Source: Candidatus Nomurabacteria bacterium
GTDB taxonomy: Bacteria > Patescibacteriota > Minisyncoccia > Phycocordibacterales > UBA5272
Assembly (NCBI GenBank): GCA_040376695.1
Contig: JBEIQD010000001.1
Coordinates: 80,726-144,725, forward strand
Length of the DNA: 64,000 bases
Direction: 5' to 3'
The translations under genes were made by a program, and so were the position numbers. Numbering within the stretch: position 1 is the stretch's first letter; every line of letters starts with the position of its first letter. Shown here piece after piece: positions 3,003-40,970 of this stretch. The notes beneath the pieces are model-generated. The model saw only the letters and a list, made by a program, of their open reading frames with translations. It was not told where the DNA came from and searched no databases.

Positions 3003-3039
3003 ACAAATTACCGAAGTCTTGGACTTCGGTAATTTTAGT

Positions 3040-3786: not shown

Positions 3787-3790
3787 GAGT

Positions 3791-4618: not shown

Positions 4619-4648
4619 TTGACAGAAATAACAGATATGTGGTACTGT
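4619..4648 (+). promoter_or_regulatory. sigma70-like promoter, TTGACA-18-TGgTACTGT (extended -10), upstream of candidate sRNA
   Basis: ttgaca at 4619-4624 and tgg-tactgt at 4640-4648, seen directly in the sequence. Confidence 0.35.
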
Positions 4649-4654
4649 GAAATA

Positions 4655-5126: not shown

Positions 5127-5150
5127 ATATAATCATATTTAGTATAGTCT

Positions 5151-5423
5151 ATGGCAACAAGAAAGGCCGCAGGTTCGGCAAAAAACCTAACAGATAGTAA
5201 ACCAAAGTACCTAGGTACTAAGCTTTACGCTGGAGAAACAGCAACAGCAGGAGCAATTATCGTTCGTCAGCGTGGTACAAAAATCATGCCAGGAAAGAAC
5301 GTTGGTCTTGGACGTGACCACACTCTTTTCGCCCTTAAGGCAGGAAAGGTTAACTTTTCAGAACGACGCATGAAGCATCTTGATGGAACTATTAAGCGAA
5401 AGAAGGTAGCAAATATCGACTAA
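5151..5423 (+). CDS. rpmA: 50S ribosomal protein L27
   Basis: [29 protein letters not shown]...[27 protein letters not shown]: canonical L27 sequence. Confidence 0.9.
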
Positions 5424-5431
5424 TACTCAAA

Positions 5432-5466
5432 ACAAAAAACCGACTCTAATGAGTCGGTTTTTTGTT
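5432..5466. terminator. bidirectional intrinsic terminator between rpmA (+) and rplI (-)
   Basis: aaaaaaccgactc-taat-gagtcggttttttgttt: stem with A-tract 5' and T-tract 3'. Confidence 0.65.
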
Positions 5467-5906
5467 TATTTTACTTGGATTGTTATCTTTTCTTTTCGTT
5501 CCCCTTGTTTAAGATGTACATCGTACACTCCGAGAGATTTAATAGGAGATGAGAGCAGTATTTGCTTAGGGTCTACTGACATCTTTGTTGTGCTATAAAT
5601 AGCGTCAGCAATATCAGTTTCTTTTATTGATGCAAAGAGCTGTCCTTTTTGGTCGGCTTTCTTGTTAGAGAGTACAATTTCATTTTTCCGTAATGAATCT
5701 ATAAGTTGTGCAAAGGTATTGGTCGCAATTTCCTTTTTATGGAGCTTCGCGCCCTCTTTTGCTTTCCACTGTGAGAGTACGGCCGGGGTTGCGTGTACGG
5801 CGTCTCCTTTCTTAATAAGGACATTCATTGCGTATCCTTCAGCAACTTCCTTCACTTCGCCTCGTTTACCTAGGTTTGCCATATCTCGAAGAAGAATAAC
5901 TTTCAT
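5466..5906 (-). CDS. rplI: 50S ribosomal protein L9
   Basis: MKVILLRDMANLGKRGEVKEVAEGYAMNVLIKKG...: classic L9 N-terminus. Start chosen at MKVILL (5906), not the upstream in-frame M at 5930. Confidence 0.9.
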   Translation of the reverse strand: MKVILLRDMANLGKRGEVKEVAEGYAMNVLIKKGDAVHATPAVLSQWKAKEGAKLHKKEIATNTFAQLIDSLRKNEIVLSNKKADQKGQLFASIKETDIADAIYSTTKMSVDPKQILLSSPIKSLGVYDVHLKQGERKEKITIQVK

Positions 5907-5959
5907 GTGGTGCATTATACAAAAAAACACTCCCTAAGCCAAATGGGAGTGTTTTTATA

Positions 5960-7192
5960 TTACTTCAGCGCCTTTACTGTTTGTATTGCTTTGAGAAGTT
6001 GTGTGTCGACAGGTTTTCCGTCACTTCCAAGCTTTGGAGTAGAGGTTCCAACGAGAGACTCAACATCAGGCTTAATACCATTCTCAGAGATGTTTACACC
6101 GTTTGGTGTAAACCATTTTGCAATGGTTACTTTCAATGATGATCCATCCGCAAAGTTAACAAGTTCCTGCACTGATCCTTTACCGAATGTTTTTTCTCCA
6201 ACAATGGTCGCCACACCTTGGTCTTTAAGAGCCCCAGCTAGAATTTCTGAAGCAGAAGCTGAGCCTCCGTCTACAAGCACCACCACCTTTGTTCCAGTAG
6301 GAACGCCCGCTAATCCTTGGCTTCTATGATTAACCACAGTTTCATTTTTCCCCTGCTTTTCACTCACCACCACTTTCCCTTCTTGTAGGAAATAACTTGC
6401 CATTGCGACTGAGGCATCAAGATATCCCCCTGGGTTACCTCGAAGGTCAATAATCATGCGTTTGTATCCCGAAACAATGAATTCGTTGAGGGCTCCCCTA
6501 AAAAGTTCTGGTGATTCTGCTGAGAAATTATATAGGTGAATAATAAATACGCCATCTTTCTTTTCTGTATCAATCGTTGGAATTTTTATTTCCTGGCGAG
6601 TAATAGTGATGTTTACAGGAGCTGTTCCTTTTGGGTGGATAACAGTAATAACAACATCCGTACCAATTTTCCCTCGAATAAGATTAACGGCTGCGTCAGA
6701 ATTTACTCCAATCATACTTTTCCCATCAACTGCTGTAATAATATCTCCAGCAAGAATACCTGCTTTCATAGCTGGGCTATCCTTAAGTGGTGCGATTACA
6801 ACAATACTTCCCTCCTTCATGCCAACGTTCATTCCTACTCCACCAAATGATCCTTGCACGTTTTCAGCAAAACTCTTTGCTTCTTGTGGTGGGAAAAACA
6901 CGGTATAAGGGTCTTTGTAGCTATCCACGTAGCCTGCAATCATTCCGTATTCAAGTTCTTTATCAGTCGGAAGCGTAGAAGAAGCTTTCCAGAAAACAAA
7001 CTTATCATTAAGGGCACCTTGTACCTGGCTGAGAAGTGCACTGTCTAACTTTCCGTCCATTTTGTTAGTACGGTCACTCATTGCGGCGCCAACCAAAATA
7101 CCAGCTCCGAAAAGAACTGTTATAAGGAGAATAGTTGCTGCTGGTCGTGCTTTGTTTGTAGGGTGTTTAAAGAAAGAAAGAATAGTATTCAT
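5960..7192 (-). CDS. ctpA: S41-family carboxyl-terminal processing protease with PDZ domain
   Basis: N-terminal TM, PDZ region, DLRGNPGGYLDASVAMASYF and VLVDGGSASASEILAGALKD (S41 catalytic Ser/Lys region). Confidence 0.85.
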   Translation of the reverse strand: MNTILSFFKHPTNKARPAATILLITVLFGAGILVGAAMSDRTNKMDGKLDSALLSQVQGALNDKFVFWKASSTLPTDKELEYGMIAGYVDSYKDPYTVFFPPQEAKSFAENVQGSFGGVGMNVGMKEGSIVVIAPLKDSPAMKAGILAGDIITAVDGKSMIGVNSDAAVNLIRGKIGTDVVITVIHPKGTAPVNITITRQEIKIPTIDTEKKDGVFIIHLYNFSAESPELFRGALNEFIVSGYKRMIIDLRGNPGGYLDASVAMASYFLQEGKVVVSEKQGKNETVVNHRSQGLAGVPTGTKVVVLVDGGSASASEILAGALKDQGVATIVGEKTFGKGSVQELVNFADGSSLKVTIAKWFTPNGVNISENGIKPDVESLVGTSTPKLGSDGKPVDTQLLKAIQTVKALK

Positions 7193-7249
7193 GGGTCTCA
7201 GTATACAGGTTTTGTATGTTAGAATAAAAGGAATAACTTACGACGATAT

Positions 7250-8638
7250 ATGACTCCGAAGATAGAACTATATAACACTAAAAGTCGTGAACTTGAAACG
7301 TTTATACCTGTACTCCCCGGTGTTGTTTCCATCTATTCCTGTGGTCCAACGGTCTATCACTATCAACATATAGGAAATATGCGGGCTGCAGTGTTTGCGG
7401 ACACACTTCACCGTATGTTTGTGCAATCAGGGTATGAGGTTCGTCATATTATTAACATTACGGATGTTGGTCATAACGTTGATGATGGTGACACGGGCGA
7501 AGATAAGATGGAAAAAGGTTCAAAGCGTGAAGGGAAAAGTGTGTGGGATATTGCAAAAATGTACACGGATGCATATTTTAAAGATCTTTCAGCTTTAGGT
7601 ATTCACGTAGACGAGTATCTTTTTCCCCGTGCAACAGACCACATTCAAGAACAAATTGACCTTATCAAAAAGCTAGAAGCTAAGGGTTCAACATACACAA
7701 TCACTGATGGAGTTTATTTCGATACTTCAACCTTTGAACACTACGCAGATTTTGCTCACCTCGATATTGAAGGACTTAAATCAGGGGCTCGAGTAGAAGA
7801 AAATTTAGAAAAGCGAAATATAACAGATTTTGCGCTCTGGAAGTTCTCTCCTACTCATGAACAACGGCAAATGGAGTGGGATTCTCCGTGGGGTAAAGGG
7901 TTTCCGGGCTGGCACGTCGAGTGTTCTGCTATGGCTATGAAGTATCTTGGAGAACATTTTGATATCCATACAGGAGGAATTGAGCATATTCCAGTTCATC
8001 ATACAAATGAAATTGCACAGTCAGAGGCGGCAACGGGTACCCCTTATGTAAATTATTGGATGCATAACAACCACCTTTTAGACACTACAGGCAAGATGTC
8101 AAAATCAACGGGCGATTTTTTAACACTCAACACACTTATTGAAAAAGGATATGACCCTCTTGCATATAGATATTTCTTAATGTCAGCAAACTATCGAAAA
8201 GAACTTCTCTTTTCATTTGAAGCACTCGACGCAGCCGTTGTCGCGTATGAAAAATTACGTACATTTTGTCGACAAGAGAAGGATTCTATTGGTGTTCTTA
8301 ATACGGTATACGCACAGAGTTTTGATGATGCGTTGCGTGCAGATTTGAATACATCGAAAGCTTTATCGGTACTTTGGACGATGCTTAAAGATGACACTCT
8401 TTCAGGTGGAGATAAGTATGCAACACTTATGCATTACAATAAATTCTTTGGTTTTGGTTTGGAAAAAGTAGTAATGGATGTGCTTATAATTCCAGAAGCA
8501 GTGCAGGTTCTTTTGACTGCTCGTTCTCAAGCTCGAAATGAAAAGGATTTTGCTGAATCAGATAGACTGCGTGACGAGATACAAAAACATGGGTTTGTCG
8601 TAAAAGATACCCCAGAAGGTCAGGTGCTTTCTCAATAA
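7250..8638 (+). CDS. cysS: cysteine--tRNA ligase
   Basis: CGPTVYHYQHIGN (HIGH-type motif), KMSKSTGD (KMSKS motif), and Cys-binding Zn ligands near the N-terminus. Confidence 0.9.
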   Translation: MTPKIELYNTKSRELETFIPVLPGVVSIYSCGPTVYHYQHIGNMRAAVFADTLHRMFVQSGYEVRHIINITDVGHNVDDGDTGEDKMEKGSKREGKSVWDIAKMYTDAYFKDLSALGIHVDEYLFPRATDHIQEQIDLIKKLEAKGSTYTITDGVYFDTSTFEHYADFAHLDIEGLKSGARVEENLEKRNITDFALWKFSPTHEQRQMEWDSPWGKGFPGWHVECSAMAMKYLGEHFDIHTGGIEHIPVHHTNEIAQSEAATGTPYVNYWMHNNHLLDTTGKMSKSTGDFLTLNTLIEKGYDPLAYRYFLMSANYRKELLFSFEALDAAVVAYEKLRTFCRQEKDSIGVLNTVYAQSFDDALRADLNTSKALSVLWTMLKDDTLSGGDKYATLMHYNKFFGFGLEKVVMDVLIIPEAVQVLLTARSQARNEKDFAESDRLRDEIQKHGFVVKDTPEGQVLSQ

Positions 8639-8640
8639 GG

Positions 8641-8672
8641 CAAAAAAAGTCCAGACTGGGTAGTCTGGACGA
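8641..8672. terminator. hairpin gtccagac-tgggta-gtctggac preceded by A7. Its polarity suits minus-strand termination better than cysS termination.
   Basis: On the + strand the stem is followed by gagaaactc (no U-tract). On the minus strand it is followed by ttttttt. Confidence 0.3.
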
Positions 8673-8830
8673 GAAACTCTAGAAAGAAATTCACCTCATC
8701 AGGACGGTGAACCAACCTTGCTGAAGGGTTGCCTAAGCTCTAATATCCTATCAAAAGCTATCTTTTGCTGCAAATTGAGTTATCCCCCTTTTTTCCACTA
8801 AAAAACCAGAAATGACACACAATTTCGTTT

Positions 8831-10342
8831 GTGGGAAGCGCAAATAGATTGGTACACTCAGGGGTAATGATACCTCTAGACCAACTCTCAAAAAGCGGAG
8901 ATAAGCGTACGGGTAATTCTCGTCGAAAGTATGGATATGATAGAAGAGAGTCAGATACTGCTGAAGACCCTCTTCGTGGCCCACGTATTCCTCCGCAAGA
9001 TTTGGAATCTGAAAAAGCACTCCTAGGTTCTCTGCTTCTTTCATCGGATGCGCTTTTTGATATTGCTGACTCTGTAAACTCTCAAAGTTTTTATGCAGCC
9101 AAGCATCAGATTATTTATGAAGTAATCGAAGACCTTGTTAACAGAAAGGAACCAGTTGATATTCTTACTGTATCTGCTGCTCTTCGTGGACGAAAAGAAT
9201 TTGATCAGATTGGTGGAGCTCCGTATCTATCAGAGCTTCTCGGTCTTGTTGGTTCTGCTTCGAATGCTAAATACTATGCTCAAATTGTTCGTAAAAAAGA
9301 ACTCCTTCGAAAGCTTATTGAAGCTACCACTCATATTGGAGAGATAGCGTACGGCGAAACAGATTCTCTTGAATCAATTCTAGAAGAGTCTGAAAAAAGT
9401 ATTTATGAAATTACAACTAAAGGAGGATCATCTGATCGTCTTATTGCGTTTAATGAATTGATTGAAGAGACATGGTCTCGTATTGAGAAGATGTCAGAAA
9501 AGGAAGGTGGCATGCGCGGAACACCGAGCGGGTTTCGTGATCTTGATAATAAATTATCTGGGTTCCAGCCATCTGACCTTATTATTCTCGCTGCGCGACC
9601 TTCTGTTGGAAAGACATCTCTTGCGCTCGACTTCGCACGTAACGCAGCCGTAAAACACAACATCCCTGTTGCTATCTTCTCTCTAGAAATGAGTAAGGAG
9701 CAGCTTGTTGACCGTATGCTCTCAGCCCAGTCTCAGGTGGATAGTTGGAAGCTTCGTACGGCAAAGCTTACGCTGGATGAAGAATTCCAGCGCCTCCAAC
9801 AAGGTATGCATGAACTCATGAAGGCTCCAATCTTTGTGGATGATAAGGCCGCGAATACTATTCTTAACATGAGAAGTACACTTCGTCGTCTAAATAGTGA
9901 CAGACCAATTGGACTTATCATTGTGGACTACCTTCAGCTTATGGGGACATCACGTCAGTATGACAACATGGTTAACCAAGTTACGGAAATCTCTCGCTCA
10001 TTGAAAGCGCTTGCTAAAGAGTTTAACGCTCCAGTGATTGCCCTCTCACAGCTTTCGCGTGCGGTTGAATCTCGTGGTGGAAAGCCTCGCCTCTCTGACC
10101 TTCGAGACTCAGGATCTATTGAACAGGATGCGGATGTGGTTATGTTCATTCACCGTGAAGATAAATATGGAGAGAACACAGAAAGAAAGAACATCGTGGA
10201 AATTCTTATTGAAAAGCATCGAAACGGCCCAACGGGTATGGTTGAACTCTACTTTGATGATAAGAAGACGTCATTCCTTTCTGTGGAGAAGTCAGAATTT
10301 GGCGATTTTACAATCCCAAATATGAATGTACCTGAATTCTAA
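8831..10342 (+). CDS. dnaB: replicative DNA helicase DnaB. The start may be an internal M; there is an N-terminal extension of about 50 aa.
   Basis: PPQDLESEKALLGSLLL (DnaB N-terminal domain), ARPSVGKTSLALDFA (Walker A), IIVDYLQLM and SQLSRAVESR motifs. Confidence 0.9.
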   Translation: MGSANRLVHSGVMIPLDQLSKSGDKRTGNSRRKYGYDRRESDTAEDPLRGPRIPPQDLESEKALLGSLLLSSDALFDIADSVNSQSFYAAKHQIIYEVIEDLVNRKEPVDILTVSAALRGRKEFDQIGGAPYLSELLGLVGSASNAKYYAQIVRKKELLRKLIEATTHIGEIAYGETDSLESILEESEKSIYEITTKGGSSDRLIAFNELIEETWSRIEKMSEKEGGMRGTPSGFRDLDNKLSGFQPSDLIILAARPSVGKTSLALDFARNAAVKHNIPVAIFSLEMSKEQLVDRMLSAQSQVDSWKLRTAKLTLDEEFQRLQQGMHELMKAPIFVDDKAANTILNMRSTLRRLNSDRPIGLIIVDYLQLMGTSRQYDNMVNQVTEISRSLKALAKEFNAPVIALSQLSRAVESRGGKPRLSDLRDSGSIEQDADVVMFIHREDKYGENTERKNIVEILIEKHRNGPTGMVELYFDDKKTSFLSVEKSEFGDFTIPNMNVPEF

Positions 10343-11078: not shown

Positions 11079-11588
11079 TTATTTCTCTTTCGGCAACACC
11101 TTTCGCTTACAGTAGCTAATGATTGCCAAACACAGGAGGGATAAACATATCGAAACCATAAGTATCCAAGAGGCTTCCCAGAACCTATTCAAAAGAAGCA
11201 AAGCTTCCTCAGGAGGTCTCATCGTTCCTCTTTTTCTGCCTTCGTAAATAATAGATTCGATGCCAATCGGCATTAGGTACACCACGAAGATTAGCAAGAG
11301 AATATTTAGGGGGATATAAGCTTTGTTCGCTTTCCCTTTCAAAAATTCTTCAGGGTTTGTGGCGAAGGTGCACAAAGACGCGGCTGGGTAGAGGAGTATG
11401 AAGCCTGAGAGCCCGCATACCATAAAAAGTATGCCGTTGGATTCTAAGAAAATGTCTGGCGATTTAGGCTCCATAAAATACAGCACTCCAACTGAGCCAA
11501 ACATCATGATAAGACTTAGTCCACCAAAAAAGGCGCCCGCATGCGCAAGCTTAGGGAGCTTTGGTTCTTTATTAATTACAGCACTCAT
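11079..11588 (-). CDS. hypothetical membrane protein
   Basis: 169-aa ORF with four or more hydrophobic segments. Confidence 0.45.
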   Translation of the reverse strand: MSAVINKEPKLPKLAHAGAFFGGLSLIMMFGSVGVLYFMEPKSPDIFLESNGILFMVCGLSGFILLYPAASLCTFATNPEEFLKGKANKAYIPLNILLLIFVVYLMPIGIESIIYEGRKRGTMRPPEEALLLLNRFWEASWILMVSICLSLLCLAIISYCKRKVLPKEK

Positions 11589-12486: not shown

Positions 12487-13542
12487 CTATTCTTCTTCGA
12501 ATGTCGGTTTGTCTAGAAGTGTTGGTTCAATCCCTATCTCCTCTCCCGTTATTCGAAGCACATCTTTATCTAACTTCTTCAGTTCCTTGTACGCTGTATT
12601 GTAATGATTCACACTTGTCCCCAATGTCACTCCAAGCTTTCTCATATAATCCTCATACGCCGCTAAGTGGTTACCAAGCTCTTCAACTCGCTTTTGGATA
12701 TGTTTTGCGCTCTCCTCAATCTTGAACGCCTTAAAGCCAAATAACACAGATTGGAGGTATGCATAGAACGTGGTCGGAGAAACAATAATCACCTTCTTTT
12801 TATTGTAAGCGTATTCAATTAAATTTTGCGTGTTAACCGCTCCCTTTGAAACCTGATTAACAAGAAGATCATAGTAGATACCTTCTGCTGGAATAAACAT
12901 AAAAGCGAACGGAAGCGTTCCTTCTTCTGGTTTAATATACTTAGCTGTTTCATCAATTCGTTTCTGAATATCTTTTTTGAATTCATTTTGATAAAAGGCT
13001 GTGTCTTCCTCATCGATAGCATTCATAAGACGCTGGTAGTTATCAAGAGAATACTTCGCATCTACTGGAATAATCCCTTCTTTTGTATGAATAACCGCAT
13101 CCACCGCTTCACCACTTTTAAAGTAATACTGCATTTCATATTGACCTGGGGCGAGCATGTTGGAAAGGATGAGTTCAAGAGACGCTTCGCCTAAATTTCC
13201 TCGTTGCTTCTGATGGGTAAGTACCTTCTCAAGGTTTTGAAGTTGCTCAGTCATTGAGAATACTTGTTTATTTCCTTCTTTCACCTCTGTAAGCTCTCGG
13301 GTGATGTCGGTAATGAGACGGTTGGCTTCTGCTCCTTGACGATGAAGCACTTGATGAAGGTCTGAAGCTGATCGTTCTAGTTTATTTTCTACCGTGTTAC
13401 GTAAACGTTCTAATTGGTCTTGAAGAATGAGAAATGTCTGATCTTCAGTATCATTGTTCTTTGTAGAACCACGAAGTAAGATAATGACGAGCAGTACAGT
13501 GATAATTGTTCCAAAAATGGCGATAAGAATAGTAGGAGTCAT
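12487..13542 (-). CDS. rmuC: DNA recombination protein RmuC
   Basis: N-terminal TM, long coiled-coil, then QKQRGNLGEASLELILSNMLAPGQYEMQYYF...GIIPVDAKY, the RmuC (DUF195) signature region. Confidence 0.8.
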   Translation of the reverse strand: MTPTILIAIFGTIITVLLVIILLRGSTKNNDTEDQTFLILQDQLERLRNTVENKLERSASDLHQVLHRQGAEANRLITDITRELTEVKEGNKQVFSMTEQLQNLEKVLTHQKQRGNLGEASLELILSNMLAPGQYEMQYYFKSGEAVDAVIHTKEGIIPVDAKYSLDNYQRLMNAIDEEDTAFYQNEFKKDIQKRIDETAKYIKPEEGTLPFAFMFIPAEGIYYDLLVNQVSKGAVNTQNLIEYAYNKKKVIIVSPTTFYAYLQSVLFGFKAFKIEESAKHIQKRVEELGNHLAAYEDYMRKLGVTLGTSVNHYNTAYKELKKLDKDVLRITGEEIGIEPTLLDKPTFEEE

Positions 13543-13612
13543 GTGATTTTAGTATAGCAGAGTCATTTAAATCTGACCTGAGGATGCTTACAACATCATA
13601 TCTTGAGAAACT

Positions 13613-13640
13613 TGACAATATTAACATATATGCTATATTG
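13613..13640 (+). promoter_or_regulatory. sigma70-like promoter, TTGACA-16-TATATT, upstream of the 65%-GC islet
   Basis: ttgaca 13613-13618 and tatatt 13635-13640. Confidence 0.4.
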
Positions 13641-13697
13641 ATGATGTCAAGCAATCGTGCTTGTCACGTGTTCATTTCAACTCAAGGAGAAAAGCCA

Positions 13698-13874
13698 ATG
13701 GCTCGCACTCATTCCCCTCCCCACAAAGGCACTGCCGCATTGAGCACCACTTTTACCTTCAAGCACAACGGCCTGGGCGCTGCACCACCCGATCCCGCCG
13801 GCCGCGCTGTTGACACCAAACGCCGTTCCGCCAAGACCCGTTCCCGCGGCGGCGCCGCCGTGACCATGCACTGA
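13698..13874 (+). CDS. 58-aa Arg/Ala/Pro/Gly-rich basic ORF in an islet of about 65% GC. A protein or a structured RNA; unresolved.
   Basis: AAGGAG RBS 8 nt upstream of ATG. MARTHSPPHKGTAALSTTFTFKHNGLGAAPPDPAGRAVDTKRRSAKTRSRGGAAVTMH. All six frames are open here because of GC, so ORF length alone is weak evidence. Confidence 0.3.
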   Translation: MARTHSPPHKGTAALSTTFTFKHNGLGAAPPDPAGRAVDTKRRSAKTRSRGGAAVTMH

Positions 13875-13977
13875 CCCGGCCAAGGGCTGGCCAGGCAGCG
13901 CAAACACTGCGCTGCCGTGCCTCCCAAAAAACCTGACGACTAGCTCGTCATAACGGTGACAAAGGACTCACCAATAA

Positions 13978-14012
13978 ACCATTCTCCAAAAGAGAGTGGT
14001 TTTTTATTTTTT
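13978..14012 (+). terminator. intrinsic terminator ending the high-GC islet transcript
   Basis: ccattctc-caaaa-gagagtgg followed by tttttatttttt. Confidence 0.45.
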
Positions 14013-14044
14013 CCAATTAAGGACCATGGTATAATACCTTTACT

Positions 14045-14491
14045 ATGCAAGAACAAATTAAAGCAGCAATAAAACCAGCGATGATAGCAAAAGATACGGT
14101 GCGCCTCGGCACACTTCGTATGCTTCTCGCTGCATTTACTAATGAACTCGTGACACAGGGACGTCCACCAACAGACCCTCTTTCTGATGAGGATTGTATG
14201 AAGGTTATTAAGCGTCTCGCTAAGCAGCGAAAGGATTCAATCGAACAGTTCGTTTCAGGTGGACGTGAAGATTTAGCAATTGATGAGAAAGCTGAACTTT
14301 CGATCATTGAGGAACTTCTTCCTGCACAAATGACAGAAGAAGAGGTTGAAACTCGTATTAAAGCAAAGCTTGCAGAGTCTCCACTTGACCCTACAAAGAA
14401 AGGGCAGTTTGTTGGAACAATGATGAAGGAGCTTGGTGATACAGCAGACGGCGCAATGGTAAAAGCTGTTATCGATAGACTAACTGCGTAA
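14045..14491 (+). CDS. GatB/YqeY-domain protein
   Basis: Resembles the YqeY/GatB C-terminal domain family throughout (IKAAIKPAMIAKDTVRLGTLRML..., LSDEDCMKVIKRLAKQRKDSIEQF). Confidence 0.8.
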   Translation: MQEQIKAAIKPAMIAKDTVRLGTLRMLLAAFTNELVTQGRPPTDPLSDEDCMKVIKRLAKQRKDSIEQFVSGGREDLAIDEKAELSIIEELLPAQMTEEEVETRIKAKLAESPLDPTKKGQFVGTMMKELGDTADGAMVKAVIDRLTA

Positions 14492-14503
14492 ACAATACTT
14501 ACC

Positions 14504-14812
14504 ATGGAGATGAGACCAAGAGAGATATCAGAAGAACAGGTACAGCCAACTCTTTTTATTGAAAATATCCCTCCCAAGGCTGAAGATATTACTGAGATAC
14601 ACATGAAAGATTTGGATACTTTTCTTTCTTCAAAACTGGTTCTTAATCCTGATAACACAATATCTGGTTATCGATTTGGACTTCTTTCCATCTTTGCTTC
14701 TTCTCATGGAATTTCAGATGAAGTACTAAAAAAGTATCTTTCATACAGAGGGATTGGTCTCGATTCAAAACTCCCACCAGAGGAATCTTCAAGTAACATA
14801 AAGTTTCACTAG
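14504..14812 (+). CDS. hypothetical protein
   Basis: 102-aa ORF followed by a clean terminator. No motif recognised. Confidence 0.4.
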   Translation: MEMRPREISEEQVQPTLFIENIPPKAEDITEIHMKDLDTFLSSKLVLNPDNTISGYRFGLLSIFASSHGISDEVLKKYLSYRGIGLDSKLPPEESSSNIKFH

Positions 14813-14835
14813 GGATATTTTTGGTAACTATTGAC

Positions 14836-14866
14836 AGTATGCGAATCATATCGCATACTGTTTTTA
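14836..14866 (+). terminator. intrinsic terminator (cagtatgcga-atcata-tcgcatactg + T5)
   Basis: Perfect 10-bp inverted repeat followed by ttttt. Confidence 0.6.
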
Positions 14867-14896
14867 GTTGTTGCAATTAATTAAAAGGAGTTTTCC

Positions 14897-15325
14897 GTGG
14901 AAAATGAACCATTTGATAAAGAAACCCAACGAAAAGCCTACGAATTGATTGATACAGGCCGACAGTTTTACGGTCTGTTCTGGAGAAATCGCACACGCAC
15001 TGCAACACAGCTCGGATATGGGGACTGGGAAAATGTTCCTGAAAAGATCCGCAGATGTGTCAACCAGATTGGTCGCGGCGCCAAGCTTCGCCACGCACAA
15101 GAAAGGAGAGAAATAGCCTGCAATCAAAAGCCTCCCGTTCGAAAAAAGATTGAAGGGTTTGTGCTCAGCAAGGACTCTCTCTCTGATATCTTGGATCGGG
15201 CGCTGTTGGTTCCGAAAAGTGCACGGCCAGATCAAATAAAAATAATTCGTGAATATATCACGAGGCAAGCAGGATTTGACCCCACAAGAATCCTCCTCCA
15301 GATACATTCCTACATGGAACACTGA
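14897..15325 (+). CDS. hypothetical protein (GTG start; higher-GC than surroundings)
   Basis: AAGGAG at 14885-14890, 6 nt before GTG 14897. Terminator agacaccgcggtgtct + T10 immediately after the stop. The opposite-strand ORF 14864..15322 lacks these signals. Confidence 0.5.
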   Translation: MENEPFDKETQRKAYELIDTGRQFYGLFWRNRTRTATQLGYGDWENVPEKIRRCVNQIGRGAKLRHAQERREIACNQKPPVRKKIEGFVLSKDSLSDILDRALLVPKSARPDQIKIIREYITRQAGFDPTRILLQIHSYMEH

Positions 15326-15345
15326 CCACAGTGCTCTATCTAATC

Positions 15346-15376
15346 AAAAAGACACCGCGGTGTCTTTTTTTTATTT
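15346..15376. terminator. bidirectional intrinsic terminator
   Basis: aaaaagacaccgcggtgtcttttttttt. Confidence 0.6.
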
Positions 15377-16041
15377 TAATTATTACACTTCACCTGCATT
15401 CCAACACGCACTGGTTGGTTTGCTGAATTAAATACAAGAGAACATACAGTATTTTGAGGAAGTCGTACAGGTACTGTTGCTTGGAAACGTACCCACCCAG
15501 GAGTAGACCATGCACCTGTATTAATGGCATCCATTGCTGTTATAACTCTTCCTTGTGCATCAAGAACAACTATCGGGAACAGTCCATTTTTGAACATAGT
15601 ATCTCGAGCTTCTCCTACAATGGTTAGTCCGTACGAAATAGTTGAACCTTGATATACAGAGAGATTGCGTAGATATGTAGATCTTTCTGCGTTTGATGTT
15701 TCAGTTGTTCCTCCTGTTTTAATAACCTGCGTTCCTGTTGCTGTGTAGTATACCCAATCAACATTTGAGCCACCGTTTGTAGAAGTATTTTGGTATCCAT
15801 TGAAAGGTTCACCTGGTTTATAGACTGTTCCGTATTCTCCGTTAGTATTTTTGTTTCCTAGTAAACCTCCATAATTTTTAGGAGCTGGAAGCCAATCTCG
15901 TTTAAAAACTTCCATTGAAAAAATCTTTGAAACTTTAAATTCAGGATAGAGTGTGCCTACAAGCCATAGAACTAATGCTAATAGAAGTAACCCTAACGCA
16001 AGTTTGATGACGGCACCTAGTAAATAACGAATAGTATCCAT
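15376..16041 (-). CDS. hypothetical secreted/membrane-anchored protein
   Basis: N-terminal TM/signal anchor, then a Gly/Thr/Asn/Tyr-rich beta-type region. Confidence 0.45.
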   Translation of the reverse strand: MDTIRYLLGAVIKLALGLLLLALVLWLVGTLYPEFKVSKIFSMEVFKRDWLPAPKNYGGLLGNKNTNGEYGTVYKPGEPFNGYQNTSTNGGSNVDWVYYTATGTQVIKTGGTTETSNAERSTYLRNLSVYQGSTISYGLTIVGEARDTMFKNGLFPIVVLDAQGRVITAMDAINTGAWSTPGWVRFQATVPVRLPQNTVCSLVFNSANQPVRVGMQVKCNN

Positions 16042-24216: not shown

Positions 24217-24585
24217 TTAGTTTGCAGAAACCTCTCTTGTTGTCATAAACGCTGGGATAATTAATCCTAAAAGTCCTCCACCTAGAATTGCTAAAATGAG
24301 ATTAATAACTATAAGAATTAGGTATCTAAATTTGGTGTAGAGTTTTCTCTTTATGAGAAGTAAAACAGAAATTATAGCTATGTAGATTATTGCAACCATT
24401 GGACCCACGTTAGACTGTAATCCAGCATTAAAACCCTCCTGAAATGTTTGTGCGTTGGTTGAAGTGCTTAGCAATGCCCCAAAAACACCTCCTAAAATTA
24501 CAGCAAGTAATAGATAAGCTAGATAAAAACCGATAGCTTCCTTCCAGTTTCGTTTATAAGAAAAGTCAGTTAATTTTTTAAACAT
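24217..24585 (-). CDS. hypothetical membrane protein
   Basis: 122 aa, 3 TM. Confidence 0.4.
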   Translation of the reverse strand: MFKKLTDFSYKRNWKEAIGFYLAYLLLAVILGGVFGALLSTSTNAQTFQEGFNAGLQSNVGPMVAIIYIAIISVLLLIKRKLYTKFRYLILIVINLILAILGGGLLGLIIPAFMTTREVSAN

Positions 24586-25436: not shown

Positions 25437-25473
25437 CTAGCTGGGGCTGTGGCACGAAGTTGGAACTTTTTTT
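25437..25473 (+). repeat. R1: copy of the tRNA-Gln 3'-end-like direct repeat (gctagCTGGGGCTGTGGCACGAAGTTGGAACttttttt)
   Basis: Shares a core of about 26 nt with R3-R6 and the CTGGGG acceptor segment with the tRNA-Gln 3' end. Confidence 0.6.
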
Positions 25474-26311
25474 AAATAGCTCTTTGTCTATTAACCTCTG
25501 AAAGTACAATTGAAGTTGCAACAGCAACGTTAAGTGAGCTTGCGGAGCCTTGCATAGGAATATTAACCATCACATCAGCTAATTCTTTGTATCCTGCACT
25601 CAGTCCCCACTTTTCATTACCAGCAAGTAGTATTGTTGGAGTTTTGAAATCATGTTCATAAATTGTTTCACTCCCCTTTTCATCTGTACCAACAACTTGA
25701 AGTGTCGAATATTTCTCTCGCATTGAATCGATCCAATCTTCGAGATCTCTTTGCGCTTGAACTCGAACAATAGGTAATGAGAAAAGAGAGCCAGTTGTTG
25801 CGCTAATAGTTTCAGGATCATAGATATCAACCGCGTGTCCTGTAATAACGAGCCCGTCTACACCAAGTGCGTCGCACGAACGAATAATAGTACCAAGATT
25901 CCCTGGACTTGAAGGGCGGTCGAAAATAACAATGAGTGGATTCTCTTTGAGTTGTATCTTCTCGAAATTATCTTGTGGTATTTCACCAAGAGCAAGTAGT
26001 TCGGACGCTTCTTCTTTGTTGCTGAGCTTATTCAGTAACTCAAGAGAAAGATCGTAATGAGTTTCTGCTTTAGAATTCTCTAGAATATTCTTTGCCCAAT
26101 CTGAAAGACCTTTTTCTGATGAATAAAAGAAGGCTTTTATACTCCAGTTATATGCTACTGCGTTATTGATGTTGCGAACACCCTCAAAAATGAACCCTTC
26201 ATGATTCCTTTTCTCTCTGTTTGTTTTAAGTGCGTTTAGTACTTGAAACGTAGCATTCTCTTTTGTTATTGTTAAAATTTTTGCAGTCATCTGTAAACTA
26301 TAGACTAGCAA
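25472..26311 (-). CDS. TrmH/SpoU-family RNA 2'-O-methyltransferase (RlmB-like, with N-terminal substrate-binding extension)
   Basis: IVIFDRPSSPGNLGTIIRSCDALGVDGLVITG...LNVAVATSIVLSEV: SpoU methylase motifs I-III. Confidence 0.8.
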   Translation of the reverse strand: MLVYSLQMTAKILTITKENATFQVLNALKTNREKRNHEGFIFEGVRNINNAVAYNWSIKAFFYSSEKGLSDWAKNILENSKAETHYDLSLELLNKLSNKEEASELLALGEIPQDNFEKIQLKENPLIVIFDRPSSPGNLGTIIRSCDALGVDGLVITGHAVDIYDPETISATTGSLFSLPIVRVQAQRDLEDWIDSMREKYSTLQVVGTDEKGSETIYEHDFKTPTILLAGNEKWGLSAGYKELADVMVNIPMQGSASSLNVAVATSIVLSEVNRQRAI

Positions 26312-26325
26312 AAATTCCTTAAAAA

Positions 26326-26358
26326 CTCGAGCTTGGTTTGTGGGACGAACTTGGAACT
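26326..26358 (+). repeat. R2: diverged copy (ctcgagcttggtttgtgggacgaacttggaac)
   Basis: Keeps the ctcgagc flank seen in the tRNA-Gln 3' trailer (29189-29195) and the tgggacgaa(c/g)ttggaac core. Confidence 0.5.
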
Positions 26359-26359
26359 A

Positions 26360-26506
26360 TTATTTCCTGTTGCGACTAGCATCAAAAACTACACCAATCG
26401 CTATTCCTACGGCAAGACCAATAGCAATATTGTCCAGCGCTATACCAAGCCCTGCTCCGATAGCGACACCTATAGCAATCCACATTCCCTGTGTATTTTT
26501 TTCCAT
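26360..26506 (-). CDS. 48-aa glycine-zipper membrane peptide (hypothetical)
   Basis: MEKNTQGMWIAIGVAIGAGLGIALDNIAIGLAVGIAIGVVFDASRNRK. Located between R2 and R3. Below the ORF-track threshold. Confidence 0.3.
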   Translation of the reverse strand: MEKNTQGMWIAIGVAIGAGLGIALDNIAIGLAVGIAIGVVFDASRNRK

Positions 26507-26524
26507 TTTTTCATTATAGCAAAA

Positions 26525-26560
26525 GTAGCTGGGGGTGTGGGACGAACTTGGAACTTTTTT
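26525..26560 (+). repeat. R3: gtagctgggggtgtgggacgaacttggaactttttt
   Basis: Direct repeat family member. Confidence 0.6.
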
Positions 26561-26584
26561 ATCCGAATAAGCTATACTTAGATC

Positions 26585-26899
26585 ATGAAAAAATACTGGG
26601 AGAACCTAACGGTTATAAAGACTTTCTTCTTTGCTATTTTGCTCCCAGTAATATGGTATCTAATGGCAGTTTTATCTAGTCGTTCAGTTCTAGCTTCTTC
26701 TTTCTTTGGAAGCGGAATAATGAGTATCCCTGTACTAGCTAGTTTTTGTCTTTATATAGTTCTGATGTTTACCTCAGTAGTTATTTTTATAATAAGAAAG
26801 CAATACAAACTTCTTTTTACTGTACTAATAAGTGTGTATCTTGGTTATATATTATTCGTCTTTTCATTGTACGAACTGTTTGGTAATTTAGATTTTTAA
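26585..26899 (+). CDS. hypothetical membrane protein (extremely AT-rich cargo gene)
   Basis: 104 aa, 3 TM. ORF starts about 25 nt after R3. Confidence 0.4.
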   Translation: MKKYWENLTVIKTFFFAILLPVIWYLMAVLSSRSVLASSFFGSGIMSIPVLASFCLYIVLMFTSVVIFIIRKQYKLLFTVLISVYLGYILFVFSLYELFGNLDF

Positions 26900-26904
26900 T
26901 AAAT

Positions 26905-27369
26905 ATGAAGTTTAGTCTTTTGAAACTAAAAAACCTTTACATAAATATTTTATTGGGTGGCTTCTTTGGTTCTCTTTGTGCTACCTTATTACTATCTTTA
27001 GTTAGATTCTTTTTTGGAGGATGGTCTAATCTTTTTGACGGAGTTGTTCCTAAATATGATCTTAGTTATAGCCTTTCTTATCTTGTCGTAGATCTAGGAG
27101 TTTTATTTTATTTACCTATCATCTATTTTTTTACTTTTCTATATAAAATCGTTTTTCGTAGGACTTTCCTAAAAGGAAAAAAAGTAATGATCTCGTCCTT
27201 CTCTTATATTTTATTTCAAACAATCTATATAGATATGTTTGCTAAAATCTCGTCGACTGGACCTGATTACTCTATAAGTACTGTCGATTTTGTTTTAAGA
27301 ATTATTCTTATGTTTATTTATCCAGCTATTTTTTTATATTTAATATCTTCAAAAAAATCTAATATATAA
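26905..27369 (+). CDS. hypothetical membrane protein (extremely AT-rich cargo gene)
   Basis: 154 aa, 4 TM. Stop 5 nt after the previous gene. Confidence 0.4.
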   Translation: MKFSLLKLKNLYINILLGGFFGSLCATLLLSLVRFFFGGWSNLFDGVVPKYDLSYSLSYLVVDLGVLFYLPIIYFFTFLYKIVFRRTFLKGKKVMISSFSYILFQTIYIDMFAKISSTGPDYSISTVDFVLRIILMFIYPAIFLYLISSKKSNI

Positions 27370-27384
27370 GTATTAGCTAAAAAT

Positions 27385-27421
27385 CTCGGCTGGGGCTGTG
27401 GAACGAAGTTGGAATTATTTT
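27385..27421 (+). repeat. R4: ctcggctggggctgtggaacgaagttggaattatttt
   Basis: Direct repeat family member. Confidence 0.6.
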
Positions 27422-27449
27422 AGGTGAAATGGGGTACAATTAACTTATT

Positions 27450-27899
27450 ATGGAAAAAGAAATTAAGTTAAGTGAACATAATCAGAAAACTCTAATGATA
27501 GCAGCTACTCAAGAAATCTTTGAGGCGGCTGATAACACTATTAGAGCTCTTAAAGAAGATAAGATTTCTGAAGAATTATCATACCCTCCTGATAACGGTT
27601 TTAATGATGAGCTAAATACTCAAGAAATCGAAGCGCTCAAAATGTTAAAGGATATTCCTCATTTAGATTCAGCTTTAAAGAAAGTTATCGTAGGATCATC
27701 TGGTTCGGCTTTCTTTCATTTTTTTAATTTCCTAGATGGAACATCAGATCCTGACAAAAATTTTGGAGAGTGGACATGGGCAACCTTAGTTGATCATCCC
27801 CACGGTGAAAATGACCCCTATACCGATATGCTACATGATTCATTCTATGATGCATATCTCGATTGGAAAGAATTGAAAAACTCTCAAGAAACTAATTAG
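27450..27899 (+). CDS. hypothetical acidic cytoplasmic protein (island cargo)
   Basis: 149 aa. No motif recognised. Stop abuts R5. Confidence 0.45.
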   Translation: MEKEIKLSEHNQKTLMIAATQEIFEAADNTIRALKEDKISEELSYPPDNGFNDELNTQEIEALKMLKDIPHLDSALKKVIVGSSGSAFFHFFNFLDGTSDPDKNFGEWTWATLVDHPHGENDPYTDMLHDSFYDAYLDWKELKNSQETN

Positions 27900-27931
27900 C
27901 TGGGGCTGTGGGACGAAGTTAGAACTTTTTT
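27896..27931 (+). repeat. R5: ttagctggggctgtgggacgaagttagaactttttt
   Basis: Sits between convergent genes 27450..27899 and 27934..28377. Confidence 0.6.
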
Positions 27932-27933
27932 AA

Positions 27934-28377
27934 CTATTCCAACTCAACATTCTCAAACGAATGTATAGCCTTTTCTAGCATTTCATACTTGTTGCCCTCA
28001 ATATCAGTTACAGTTGCTTTTGCATAAAAAGTCTTCTCAGCTTCCCAATTTTCAGGATAGAAAGTCCCCGCTGGCAATGTGGGATCATAATTGATCTCGA
28101 TTATCGCTTCAGAAATATAATCTGAAGGGAAGCCGTTTGCCTTCAGTTCATTTTCAATAACATGTTGCACACTTCTTAAATTTGAAAGAATCGGCTTGAT
28201 TGCTAGATGAGGAGGTGTCGCTTCCACCTTCATAACATCTAATTTTGCTTCTCGAAGATCATGTTTTTTCATTACGCTGACCACCCAGTCGTCTACATAC
28301 CCTTTATCCTCATATCGGAGAGTGCTAAATAGACTGTCAATTATATTGTTTGGTATACCGTTAAGTTTTCTAGACAT
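27934..28377 (-). CDS. hypothetical protein (island cargo)
   Basis: 147 aa. No motif recognised. Confidence 0.45.
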   Translation of the reverse strand: MSRKLNGIPNNIIDSLFSTLRYEDKGYVDDWVVSVMKKHDLREAKLDVMKVEATPPHLAIKPILSNLRSVQHVIENELKANGFPSDYISEAIIEINYDPTLPAGTFYPENWEAEKTFYAKATVTDIEGNKYEMLEKAIHSFENVELE

Positions 28378-28407
28378 TTTATTTAGTATATCAACTACAC
28401 TAAAAAC

Positions 28408-28444
28408 TACGAGCTGGGGCTCTGGGACGAAGTTAGAACAATTT
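28408..28444 (+). repeat. R6: ctacgagctggggctctgggacgaagttagaacaatttt
   Basis: Shares cgagctgggg with the tRNA-Gln 3' end plus trailer (29191-29202). Confidence 0.6.
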
Positions 28445-28508
28445 TGAGTATTGACTACATTGGTTTTTCATTGTAGTTTTATAGATATTGTTCGTTTAGG
28501 AGAAAATA

Positions 28509-29126
28509 ATGCACCTGATTACAACGGAAGAGGCTCAGAAACTCGTAGTAAGTCTTAAAGATCGGCTAGGCCGGCCAATTGACCCCGCGATAGCTGAAAT
28601 ACTTGCTGAGTTCATCCGCGTATCCCAAGCACTCGGATTCAAAACAATTGGAAGCTGCGAAGGTCATATTGATTGGGGCCTTCCCTTCCCTTGGATTGAC
28701 TTTGAGGTTAGCGCTGAGCGAGTTCCTCTGCCTTCCCTTTGGAAGCTTTGGAAATTTTCAAAACGGCGGCGTGCCATAAAGGAAAGCAAAAAACATGCTC
28801 AGAACGCGGAAGAAAAAACAGACCAGCTGTGCGCAATGTTGACACGTTTCCTTGTCCAGCACGACAAGGTGCACGGAGTTCAGCCTGAAGCTTTTCTTGT
28901 GATTGACCGTTGGCAACGGTTTCTGTTCAGACTTATGCCGGCACGAACACTGCTTTCTGATAGTTACAAGGTGTCCGGTGACATTTCGGCCCTTAACTCC
29001 TTACTTGAAGAGCAGCGTCGCGTCTTTAAATCTTTTGCCTCTTTTTGCGTCGCCACGCTTGAGCGAGAGCAAAATCTCGCTGGTGTCCCCGACGAAGGAT
29101 GTAAAGGATGCATGGGGCGTGGTTGA
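28509..29126 (+). CDS. hypothetical protein, about 50% GC (distinct from host composition), adjacent to tRNA-Gln
   Basis: 205-aa ORF. C-terminal CKGCMGRG. Followed by a ccgc...gcggttttgttttt terminator (29140-29176). Confidence 0.45.
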   Translation: MHLITTEEAQKLVVSLKDRLGRPIDPAIAEILAEFIRVSQALGFKTIGSCEGHIDWGLPFPWIDFEVSAERVPLPSLWKLWKFSKRRRAIKESKKHAQNAEEKTDQLCAMLTRFLVQHDKVHGVQPEAFLVIDRWQRFLFRLMPARTLLSDSYKVSGDISALNSLLEEQRRVFKSFASFCVATLEREQNLAGVPDEGCKGCMGRG

Positions 29127-29139
29127 GCCTCATCTACAA

Positions 29140-29176
29140 AAGCCGCATGGTTTCGCCCAGCGGTTTTGTTTTTGTA
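29140..29176 (+). terminator. intrinsic terminator of the recurring ccgc...gcgg-ttttgttttt family
   Basis: aagccgcatggtttcgcccagcggttttgttttt. Same module as at 59688 and 61143. Confidence 0.4.
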
Positions 29177-29195
29177 AATTCTCGAGCTGGGGTAC

Positions 29196-29266
29196 AAGGA
29201 CTCGAACCTCGATACTCAGGACCAAAACCTGATGTCCTACCATTAGACGATACCCCAATGTTTATT
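29196..29266 (-). tRNA. tRNA-Gln (anticodon UUG); CCA not encoded
   Basis: Minus-strand sequence: TGGGGTA TC GTC TAATGGTAG GAC A TCAGG TTTTGGT CCTGA GTAT CGAGG TTCGAGT CCTTG TACCCCA G. 7-bp acceptor, perfect 5-bp anticodon stem, 7-nt loop with U33 and A37, T-loop TTCGAGT. Closely resembles E. coli tRNA-Gln ends (TGGGGTA...TACCCCAG). Confidence 0.85.
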
Positions 29267-29622
29267 TTGTTTGTGACCCACGTTTCGTAACTTACTTGTT
29301 CTTTCTTGACCTGAAGTGTCATTTGGTTAGAAACTGTGGTCAGGTCTCTAACTCTTCGCGGCCGAGCCGTCTCGACCCATTTTTATTTTCTTACCCGTCA
29401 CCTTTTATCTGCCCTTAATCGATCTTGATGCTTGAGAGTTATTTGGTTCCTTCGCTTGCTAGCTACGGAACTCTTCGTCGCTCTTCGCTCCTTGACTCAA
29501 TTTCGGTGCTGTAATACTATCATTTTTCTACCGATTTTTCCACACATGGTTTCATTGTAAGCTTTATAGATATAGGGATAACTTGCTAGCCCTCCTGACC
29601 ATGTTCGGTATACTTTAGTTGT

Positions 29623-40238: not shown

Positions 40239-40970
40239 TTGTTTATAAGGATATCTAGGAAAACAGATTTACAGGATATACTGGTCATAATGACAGAGCG
40301 AGACACCTTAGAGGAAGATATTAAGAGCTCCACGCCTCATATCGTTACCCACCAGGAAAAGTATAGTAAACACCCTAAAGGATTTTCAGATTTTATAGCA
40401 AAATCAACCGTACACCTCTCAGCAGGTATAGCCGATTTTTTATTCCAAGAGCGCTATTGTCACCGCGCTGTAGTTCTGGAAACGGTTGCGGCTGTTCCAG
40501 GTATGGTAGGAGGACTTCTTCAACATTTAAAATCGTTACGCTTCATACGGGATGACCGCGGATGGATTCACACCCTCTTAGCTGAAGCAGAAAATGAGCG
40601 AATGCATCTACTGATTTATAGCGAGATAGCAAAACCCTCTACGTTAGAAAGAATTCTTATTATGGTGGTTCAGTTTTTCTTTTATCATTTGTATTTTCTC
40701 CTGTATCTTATCAGTGCGAAAACAGCTCATCGTGTTGTTGGATACTTTGAGGAAGAAGCAATTCATAGCTATAAACACTATCTACAACTGGTAGAAGAAG
40801 GTAAACACGAAAACATACCAGCTCCAATAAGTGCTATTACGTATTGGGAACTTCCTGAAGATGCACGTCTTATGGATGTCATCAAAGCAACCATCAAGGA
40901 TGAAATGTACCACCGAGACACCAACCATGCCTTTGCTGACGATGTTGCAGGAACAAAACTCTGGAGTTAG
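40239..40970 (+). CDS. aox: alternative oxidase (AOX; di-iron carboxylate ubiquinol oxidase family)
   Basis: HRAVVLETVAAVPGMVGGLLQHLKSLR...GWIHTLLAEAENERMHLL...YLISAKTAHRVVGYFEEEAIHSY...DEMYHRDTNHAFAD: all four AOX iron-ligand motifs (LET, NERMHL, EEEA.H, DE..HRD.NH). Confidence 0.8.
   Translation: MFIRISRKTDLQDILVIMTERDTLEEDIKSSTPHIVTHQEKYSKHPKGFSDFIAKSTVHLSAGIADFLFQERYCHRAVVLETVAAVPGMVGGLLQHLKSLRFIRDDRGWIHTLLAEAENERMHLLIYSEIAKPSTLERILIMVVQFFFYHLYFLLYLISAKTAHRVVGYFEEEAIHSYKHYLQLVEEGKHENIPAPISAITYWELPEDARLMDVIKATIKDEMYHRDTNHAFADDVAGTKLWS

Follow-up and report, generated by a model that had tools for sequence, protein, structure and literature searches.

The question raised by this locus is how six copies of one short repeat came to lie, all in one orientation, beside a tRNA-Gln gene, with small orphan genes between them. 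The locus is part of a 64,000-nucleotide stretch, here called the window, of a Candidatus Nomurabacteria genome (contig JBEIQD010000001.1, positions 80,726 to 144,725). A first-pass annotation of the window had read the repeats as the classical footprint of integration at a tRNA gene, and the whole as a possible integrase-less, cassette-like accretion zone. From comparison with related loci, we conclude that the repeats are very probably attL-type junctions, hybrid attachment (att) sites left behind when small elements of a Patescibacteria-wide family, encoding a large serine recombinase (LSR), integrated at the 3' end of tRNA-Gln.

The repeat is a 33-nt element, GCTGGGGNTNTGGGACGAAGTTRGAAC-NNN-TTT, and repeat detection combined with mismatch searches located six direct copies, all on the plus strand. 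They lie on the 3' side of the minus-strand tRNA-Gln(UUG) gene (29186-29257), span 25440-28445, and are here named r1 (25440..25472), r2 (26331..26363), r3 (26528..26560), r4 (27389..27421), r5 (27899..27931) and r6 (28413..28445), each starting with its core. Their start-to-start spacings are 891, 197, 861, 510 and 514 bp, and the last copy begins 773 bp before the tRNA gene. Six direct repeats in about 3 kb had been annotated on the first pass, and they are present, with true core starts 3-5 nt to the right of the earlier coordinates, which had taken in an A-rich left flank. The 27-mer consensus GCTGGGGCTGTGGGACGAAGTTGGAAC matches five copies with at most three mismatches, and a 17-mer consensus matches all six. 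Neither search found a further copy on either strand of the whole 64 kb (shuffled sequence would give 0.00 matches to the 27-mer and 0.15 to the 17-mer).

The outermost copy, r1, forms the left edge of the array and consists of a GCTG core followed by an arm that we call P' (GCTGGGGCTGTGGCACGAAGTTGGAAC ttt ttt). The most diverged copy is r2 (GCTTGGTTTGTGGGACGAACTTGGAAC), whose left flank, AAAAACTCGA, matches the tRNA trailer; the left flank of r6 is AAAAACTACGA. The 3' end of the tRNA reads GCTG on the plus strand (29186-29189). The earlier view that the repeat reproduces the tRNA 3' end and trailer holds for GCTGGGG, which is all that every copy shares with that end, and fails for the CTCGA trailer, which is common only to r2 and appears as ACGA in r6.

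We searched for the repeat elsewhere with a degenerate 26-mer of 21 specified bases, which returned 13 loci in a one-genome-per-species collection and 26 loci in metagenomes; two of the latter (L028 and L030) look like chance matches. The repeat is present in about 45 other Patescibacteria loci, co-oriented in each, and the named genome records that carry it are all Patescibacteria (Saccharibacteria, Moranbacteria, Paceibacteria, Nomurabacteria and Minisyncoccota). Across 44 non-redundant sequences we counted 76 copies, where 3 would be expected by chance, and none was in the opposite orientation within a locus. When 53 unique copies were tallied by column, the repeat showed a sharp left edge at its first G (G0) and a right edge at +32 (GGAAC-NNN-TTT), with variable positions 7 and 9 and unconserved flanks. 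Of the first 40 sequences, 13 contain a tRNA-Gln gene; in each it occupies the strand opposite the copies and lies in the direction in which they point. The only other tRNA in these sequences was one tRNA-Arg. Association with tRNA-Gln thus belongs to the element throughout Patescibacteria and is no peculiarity of the window genome. In every genome examined the repeat is confined to the tRNA-Gln side, and the other 60 kb of the window contain no copy. A viral origin was rejected, as the 26-mer had 0 matches in IMG/VR and an LSR protein search there found no relative, with a profile search giving distant relatives only (≤34% identity). We found no published description of a tRNA-Gln/LSR system in Patescibacteria, also known as the Candidate Phyla Radiation (CPR), in the open-access literature.

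A Pfam sweep of 125 proteins from these loci revealed LSRs with Resolvase and Recombinase domains, and Zn_ribbon_recom in most, in loci L024, L037 and L040-L050. The LSR of L024 has more than 2,870 homologues at E ≤ 1e-20, and the named ones are annotated as Patescibacteria, Parcubacteria or Paceibacterota. The contexts of seven LSR homologues share a conserved, co-oriented module, in the order of an unknown protein of ~280-320 aa, an open reading frame (ORF) of 54-82 aa, a rolling-circle Rep (REP_ORF2-G2P, PF23343) and the LSR. The LSR gene ends 13-60 nt inside an opposite-strand tRNA-Gln in L024, L040-42 and L044-48 (in L024 its stop codon lies inside the tRNA-Gln 3' end), and 30-60 nt inside a tRNA-Tyr in L043 and L050. 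A P'-type copy of the repeat lies 4.8-6.8 kb upstream of the LSR end, in the same orientation, and is the far boundary of a complete autonomous element of 4.8-6.8 kb that comprises cargo, the ~300-aa unknown protein, the small ORF, Rep and LSR. One 7-kb contig (L048) shows the entire unit, from the site through the tRNA. In L046, on the contig of L011 (a Saccharibacteria record), six sites are followed by a Rep-LSR unit and then by tRNA-Gln; the right flank carries dnaX, dus and serS, which the window also has to the right of its tRNA-Gln, from ~7 kb away. In all seven cases with both an LSR unit and the tRNA in view, the LSR-bearing unit is the tRNA-proximal one.

No tyrosine recombinase appeared in the 25 families listed for the 125 jointly scanned locus proteins, or in 10 proteins scanned individually. 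The first-pass reading stands as regards integration at tRNA-Gln, and the recombinase found is a serine one, not the classical tyrosine type. Its suggestion of an integrase-less accretion zone is borne out on both counts: the relatives show the repeat as the far boundary of LSR elements abutting tRNA-Gln, and the window is free of recombinases, with none in a Pfam scan of 40 window ORFs and nothing better than E 0.4 in a tblastn search with three LSRs.

The two loci with tRNA-Tyr represent a sister lineage of these LSR/Rep elements that targets tRNA-Tyr, each with two tandem P' sites (L043, sites at 4554 and 5481, tRNA-Tyr c[11455-11538]; L050, sites at 138 and 863, tRNA-Tyr c[6912-6995]); array building is therefore not specific to tRNA-Gln. 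We also noted that the element cargo of L040 and the DNA just outside it (1-9003) are mostly defence and addiction genes, namely a ThsB-like TIR protein, 8xMP, a LexA/S24-N6_N4 methyltransferase fusion, RE_BsaWI, Mrr_cat-nSTAND, DpnI and a zeta toxin, and that L049 carries PIN and HicAB pairs. In some genomes, then, tRNA-Gln islands act as defence islands.

Closer comparison of the sites shows where target sequence gives way to element sequence. On the plus strand the site consists of the 4-nt core GCTG (tRNA positions 71-74) and a P' arm of ~29 nt, GGGNTNTGGGACGAAGTTRGAAC-NNN-TTT. The distal sites at tRNA-Tyr (L043 and L050) read GTGCGCC-GTC-TGGTACGAAGTTGGAAC, where the left 6-8 nt are the tRNA-Tyr 3' end. 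The arm TGG(G/T)ACGAAGTTGGAAC is identical at both tRNAs and the left part follows the target, GCTG(GGG) vs GTGCGC. Because the same arm is joined to tRNA-Tyr ends, it is element-borne (P') and the left end is the target side, as in a hybrid site with one side that tracks the target and another that stays constant. At the distal site, L040 and L044 have GCTGGCC or GCTGGCT, like the attP-like site of L049, whereas the resident tRNA reads GCTGCGG or GCTGCCG. As these distal sites follow L049 and not the tRNA, the exchange point lies within GCTG. The distal copy of L024 would likewise mispair with the 5' acceptor strand of its resident tRNA. All of the repeat to the right of GCTG thus derives from the element. 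Identity between attL and attR is limited to GCTG in L024, L040 and L044, and extends to GCTGGG in L048 and GTGCGCCG in L050; about 4 nt common to both junctions of one element is typical of serine integrases. We also considered a crossover at the dyad around repeat positions 7-9 (TTCAACT / AGTTGRA), and rejected it because the junctions of L040, L044 and L049 place the exchange within GCTG.

The LSR reading frame itself spans the core, in the same phase in all nine cases; loci with this arrangement are L024, L040, L044, L046 and L048 in the integrated state and L037 and L049 in an attP-like state. In the latter two no tRNA is present and the frame reads through the core and P' (...LLGVWDEVGT...), so that the protein ends in P'-encoded residues (LLGVWDEVGT.., QLAFLDDVRT..), and integrated LSRs end in tRNA-antisense residues (LRDLDSNQ.., MLGDRESNPN). 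Integration therefore replaces the last 4-40 residues of the integrase, a C-terminal tail swap that is possibly a built-in switch between episomal and integrated states. The window repeats still encode the P' tail (LGLWDEV..), which explains the weak tblastn matches to them.

Comparison of close relatives shows that whole units differ between them. The locus L092 is 91.6% identical to the window over 28456-29178, that is, from the tRNA-proximal unit (unit F, 28446..29185) through its terminator, up to 8 nt before the core. After GCTGGGG, where the window has the tRNA body, L092 instead has a P'-type site, a unit with a 186-aa ORF, and a P' site that is 100% identical to r5 over 35 nt. Between close relatives, units are thus gained or lost precisely at the core. 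In L012 an identical tRNA-Gln (100%) and the same DUF2200 flank enclose entirely different units, and more generally L012, L051 and L053 share the left flank (DUF2200, DUF2975) or the tRNA with the window and differ in the intervening units, so gene content between the DUF2200 flank and tRNA-Gln varies among relatives. Neither finding that would have refuted the first-pass reading, a repeat spread over unrelated loci or one gene order kept by distant relatives, is borne out in the genomes examined. When 370 locus ORFs were clustered all-vs-all, no family extended to more than four loci. Together, the breakpoint at the core in L092 and the tRNA-proximal position of the LSR unit in every informative case identify the array as an accretion island.

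We propose the following mechanism. The LSR would recombine attP (P-left/GCTG/P') with the tRNA 3' end, where GCTG at 29186-29189 is the inferred core and insertion point. Each insertion would recreate a usable tRNA and target, and later arrivals would stack; a new unit would enter at the tRNA junction and older units would be pushed outward, giving [core-P'-unit]n-tRNA with the sites in one orientation. The window units would have been captured as recombinase-less mini-units by an LSR acting in trans, or would be the remains of larger insertions. Since the window lacks Rep and LSR, the recombinase would be encoded elsewhere or have been lost.

Several points weigh against this account. No LSR, Rep or module remnant or pseudogene trace was found in the window, and the window units are far smaller than the autonomous element; nor is simple decay obviously sufficient, with one LSR pseudogene fragment (L029) among roughly 45 LSR-less units. 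The link between LSR and site is drawn from their adjacency and from the structure of the junctions. Canonical LSRs act on attP and attB pairs only and do not use attR-type junctions as targets, and stacking at an occupied tRNA requires an attR-type junction that still works as a target, which is not textbook behaviour. Finally, the protein of unit F is tRNA-proximal in the window, and its homologues in the tRNA-Gln arrays of L051, L053 and L092 lie one or two units from the tRNA, a shift that needs later insertions in those loci or a rearrangement.

The rival that survives best, which we regard as possible but doubtful, takes the six units for what is left of six full-length Rep-LSR elements of 5-7 kb, each of which would have lost its Rep-LSR module and the greater part of its cargo through deletion, with no mini-cassette mobility. 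Such decay would agree with the tRNA-proximal position of the LSR unit (7/7) and with the pseudogene fragment of L029, which lies inside an array, and degenerate tRNA islands with fragmented integrases have been described for tycheposons (10.1101/2020.12.28.424599). The condition of the LSR-less units fits it poorly: their sizes fall mainly between 0.1 and 2.4 kb (median about 520 bp), their P' arms are intact (for the most part ≤2 mismatches in 18), almost no remnants of Rep, LSR or the ~300-aa protein accompany them (none in the window), and neutral loss of 3 kb of genes should have eroded the 30-nt sites too. Each window unit is, moreover, a compact and apparently intact expression unit. 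Small units, well-kept P' arms and scarce Rep/LSR debris argue for trans capture, or for some function of the site, over pure decay.

Taken further, the preferred reading of the repeats as LSR-made junctions leads to a conjecture that we hold only tentatively, with about the same weight as pure decay, namely that Patescibacteria possess an integron-like, LSR-driven gene-capture platform, in which mini-units are serially captured at tRNA-Gln in trans and the tRNA-side junction stays competent. The recombinase-less mini-unit of such a platform would be 0.1-2.4 kb long and consist of one promoter-gene-terminator module with a single P' arm. Among the loci compared, no identical mini-unit was caught in two places.

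It is very unlikely that the repeats are pseudo-tRNA fragments, duplicated and diverged 3' halves (T-arm plus acceptor) of tRNA-Gln derived from local duplication or from classical tyrosine-integrase islands, which displace the tRNA 3' end. Repeats beside tRNA genes most often arise in this way, and the copies share GCTGGGG and a loose GGAC..CGAA similarity with the tRNA 3' end; the first-pass annotation had taken the remainder of the repeat for a diverged T-arm. That interpretation fails, as the would-be stem halves (TTCCA / CCCAC) are not complementary and cannot pair, no copy gave a tRNA or Rfam match, and the arm is element-borne and also fused to tRNA-Tyr ends. The repeat is, in addition, near-identical across Patescibacteria classes whose tRNA-Gln 3' ends differ, the copies in L024, L040 and L044 would not pair with the resident 5' acceptor strand, and the locus proteins scanned lack the tyrosine recombinase that such islands would call for.

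A generic intergenic regulatory or structural element, such as a repetitive extragenic palindrome or bacterial interspersed mosaic element (REP/BIME), promoter, operator or bidirectional terminator with an accidental likeness to the tRNA, is barely credible. The copies are always intergenic in the window, have an A-run and a T-run on their flanks, and in five of six cases abut a gene start. Yet they hold one orientation although neighbouring genes point either way, and r5 sits between two convergent stop codons, which agrees with the earlier judgement that they have no promoter or terminator role. None of the six copies, on either strand, folds more stably than dinucleotide shuffles (z -0.8 to +1.0, single-sequence folding), and Rfam at gathering and permissive thresholds matched only the tRNA. 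The repeat has no predicted palindrome, is missing from the rest of the window and clusters beside tRNA-Gln elsewhere, and its left 6-8 nt switch with the target tRNA. A hairpin-free repeat of this kind fits a protein-bound duplex site. An integron-type or CRISPR (clustered regularly interspaced short palindromic repeat)-type array, suggested by small, promoter-independent units punctuated by repeats beside a fixed anchor, can practically be dismissed, as the first-pass annotation had done, since the 40 window ORFs include no IntI-type tyrosine recombinase, the repeats form no attC-like imperfect palindrome, gene orientation is mixed, the 0.2-0.9 kb spacing is irregular and filled with ORFs, and no cas genes occur among the proteins scanned.

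Within the window, the preferred reading divides the array into six units of 0.2-0.9 kb, with one or two orphan genes apiece. Unit A (25472..26330, minus strand, 858 bp) encodes a SpoU/TrmH-family RNA 2'-O-methyltransferase (25472-26290; PF00588, E 5.9e-37) that scores under the cut-offs for the RlmB, TrmH and NshR equivalogs. Unit B (26360..26527, minus strand, about 165 bp) encodes a 48-aa glycine-rich membrane peptide (26360-26506), and unit C (26561..27388, plus strand, 828 bp, 28% GC) two orphan membrane proteins (26585-26899 and 26905-27369). Units D (27422..27898, plus strand) and E (27932..28412, minus strand) hold a convergent pair of orphan genes: a 149-aa protein at 27450-27899, whose stop codon overlaps the first base of r5, and a 147-aa protein at 27934-28377. 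The sole database relative of the latter is a shorter entry, P0133, that is 100% identical and presumably the same gene called with a later start. In unit F (plus strand, 47% GC), the gene for a 205-aa orphan protein (28509-29126) comes with promoter-like boxes of its own (TTGACT/TAGTTT) and a hairpin terminator. Its homologues keep the same boxes and terminator, and the unit is a self-contained promoter-ORF-terminator module.

Against Pfam, PHROGs, NCBIfam and PADLOC, five of the seven array genes had no family match, and the sixth, the 48-aa peptide, only a weak sub-threshold one; the four libraries gave nothing for the unit genes beyond the SpoU methyltransferase and weak sub-threshold matches of two small peptides. 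These results agree with what had been annotated on the first pass, namely the methyltransferase (now supported by PF00588), the small membrane peptides, the convergent pair and the compositional contrast between 26585-27369 (under 30% GC claimed, 28.0% found) and 28509-29126 (about 50% claimed, 49.5% found), in a window of 39.9% GC. In both the window (25472-26290) and the unrelated locus L036 (6405-7193), a P' site is followed immediately on its right by a SpoU-family methyltransferase gene on the other strand; the two enzymes are 25% identical. Such enzymes may be recurrent cargo, for example with an rRNA- or tRNA-modifying resistance or immunity function.

Other features of these loci deserve mention. 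The arrays of related loci, though not that of the window, contain a repeated unit of ~155 nt bounded by GCTG cores, which we call blockA (L005 914-1071, 4095-4248 and 4491-4646; L002; L004 5798-5953; L006 2932-3037; L001 1796-1954; several in L034). On the tRNA strand, blockA begins with the 5' acceptor sequence of tRNA-Gln and ends with its last 19 nt, and the predicted fold has an acceptor-like closing stem and two hairpins (41 pairs, 10 compensatory) with a conserved CUGC loop. It had no Rfam match; it may be an RNA that mimics a tRNA, or else the single-strand origin, in structured form, of the rolling-circle elements. In L001 (3684-3764 and 3814-3886), L006 (3161-3251) and L005 (4787-4867), the real tRNA-Gln gene is preceded at close range by one or two additional copies of its 5' half (29-30 nt, reaching through the anticodon stem), which tRNA prediction does not recognise. 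Behind each copy come an unrelated 30-nt insert and a GGTCCTGA hairpin. A second integrase, cutting in the anticodon loop, may have left these copies as its footprints.

Directly upstream of the tRNA-Gln of the window is a 365-nt ORF-free stretch (29258-29622, 41.6% GC), unusually long for this compact genome. Rfam gave nothing for it, and it does not resemble the equivalent region of L012. The left flank of the window array (24217-24585) gave a weak sub-threshold match to TrbC/VirB2 pilin-like proteins, and L044/L045 have five T4SS_pilin genes in a run (13463-15877), ~2 kb from tRNA-Gln; pilin-like genes may thus be recurrent around this locus. Further away, the window encodes a full-length alternative oxidase (40239-40970; PF01786, E 3.6e-71), a respiratory-type enzyme unexpected in a CPR organism, here with a genome of Saccharibacteria-like appearance.

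In Patescibacteria, whose genomes are of roughly 1 Mb, few mobile elements are recognised, and genetic tools for these bacteria are almost lacking. An integration system defined by its sequence and present throughout the phylum, an LSR with a ~40-bp site at tRNA-Gln or tRNA-Tyr, would account for the location of their hypervariable, orphan and defence genes, and the 27-mer offers a simple marker for such islands in fragmentary metagenome bins. LSRs with known natural att sites are candidate serine integrases for genetic work on Patescibacteria. Should mini-units be captured in trans, serine integrases could work iteratively like an integron, which would change the view of their directionality control; competence of the tRNA-side junction, if true, departs from the strict attP x attB rule of these enzymes.

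The array resembles three known systems in different respects. Like integron cassette arrays, it has a fixed insertion point with proximal entry, short and mostly single-gene units between recombination sites, many orphan genes, and arrays with no nearby integrase, comparable to clusters of attC sites lacking integron integrases (CALIN). Unlike them, it has no IntI, attI or attC hairpin, its sites are conserved in sequence and not in structure, its genes point in both directions, and every unit examined carries a promoter and a terminator of its own.

With the phiC31, Bxb1 and A118/LI-type integrases, the LSRs share the Resolvase, Recombinase and zinc ribbon architecture, hybrid junctions and very short identity between partner sites, with an element site of ~40-50 bp, an arm of ~25-30 bp and no evident accessory arm sites. 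Large serine integrases usually target protein-coding genes, whereas the target here is the 3' end of a tRNA gene. The tandem arrays imply repeated use of an occupied site, and the integrase ORF has attP within its 3' end, with the result that the last 4-40 residues are swapped; both features set the Patescibacteria system apart, for which no directionality factor was identified.

The closest described analogue is the tycheposon/tRNA island of Prochlorococcus, in which 27 of 937 elements carry a large serine recombinase (Hackl et al., 10.1101/2020.12.28.424599). In both systems, small cargo-bearing integrative elements that bring their own replication gene insert at tRNA 3' ends of a streamlined genome, and repeated insertion at a single tRNA displaces the older elements outward. 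Partial att/tRNA repeats and degenerate units punctuate the resulting islands, whose cargo includes defence and niche genes. In Patescibacteria, by contrast, the recombinase is an LSR throughout and is paired with a rolling-circle Rep (PF23343), its ORF spans the site, and the units are mostly <1 kb and recombinase-less. The repeat is likewise mostly element arm with a shared core of ~4 nt (4-7 nt in common with the tRNA), in place of the partial tRNA copies that go with a tyrosine integrase. The array is thus an LSR-based form of the tRNA-anchored accretion island.

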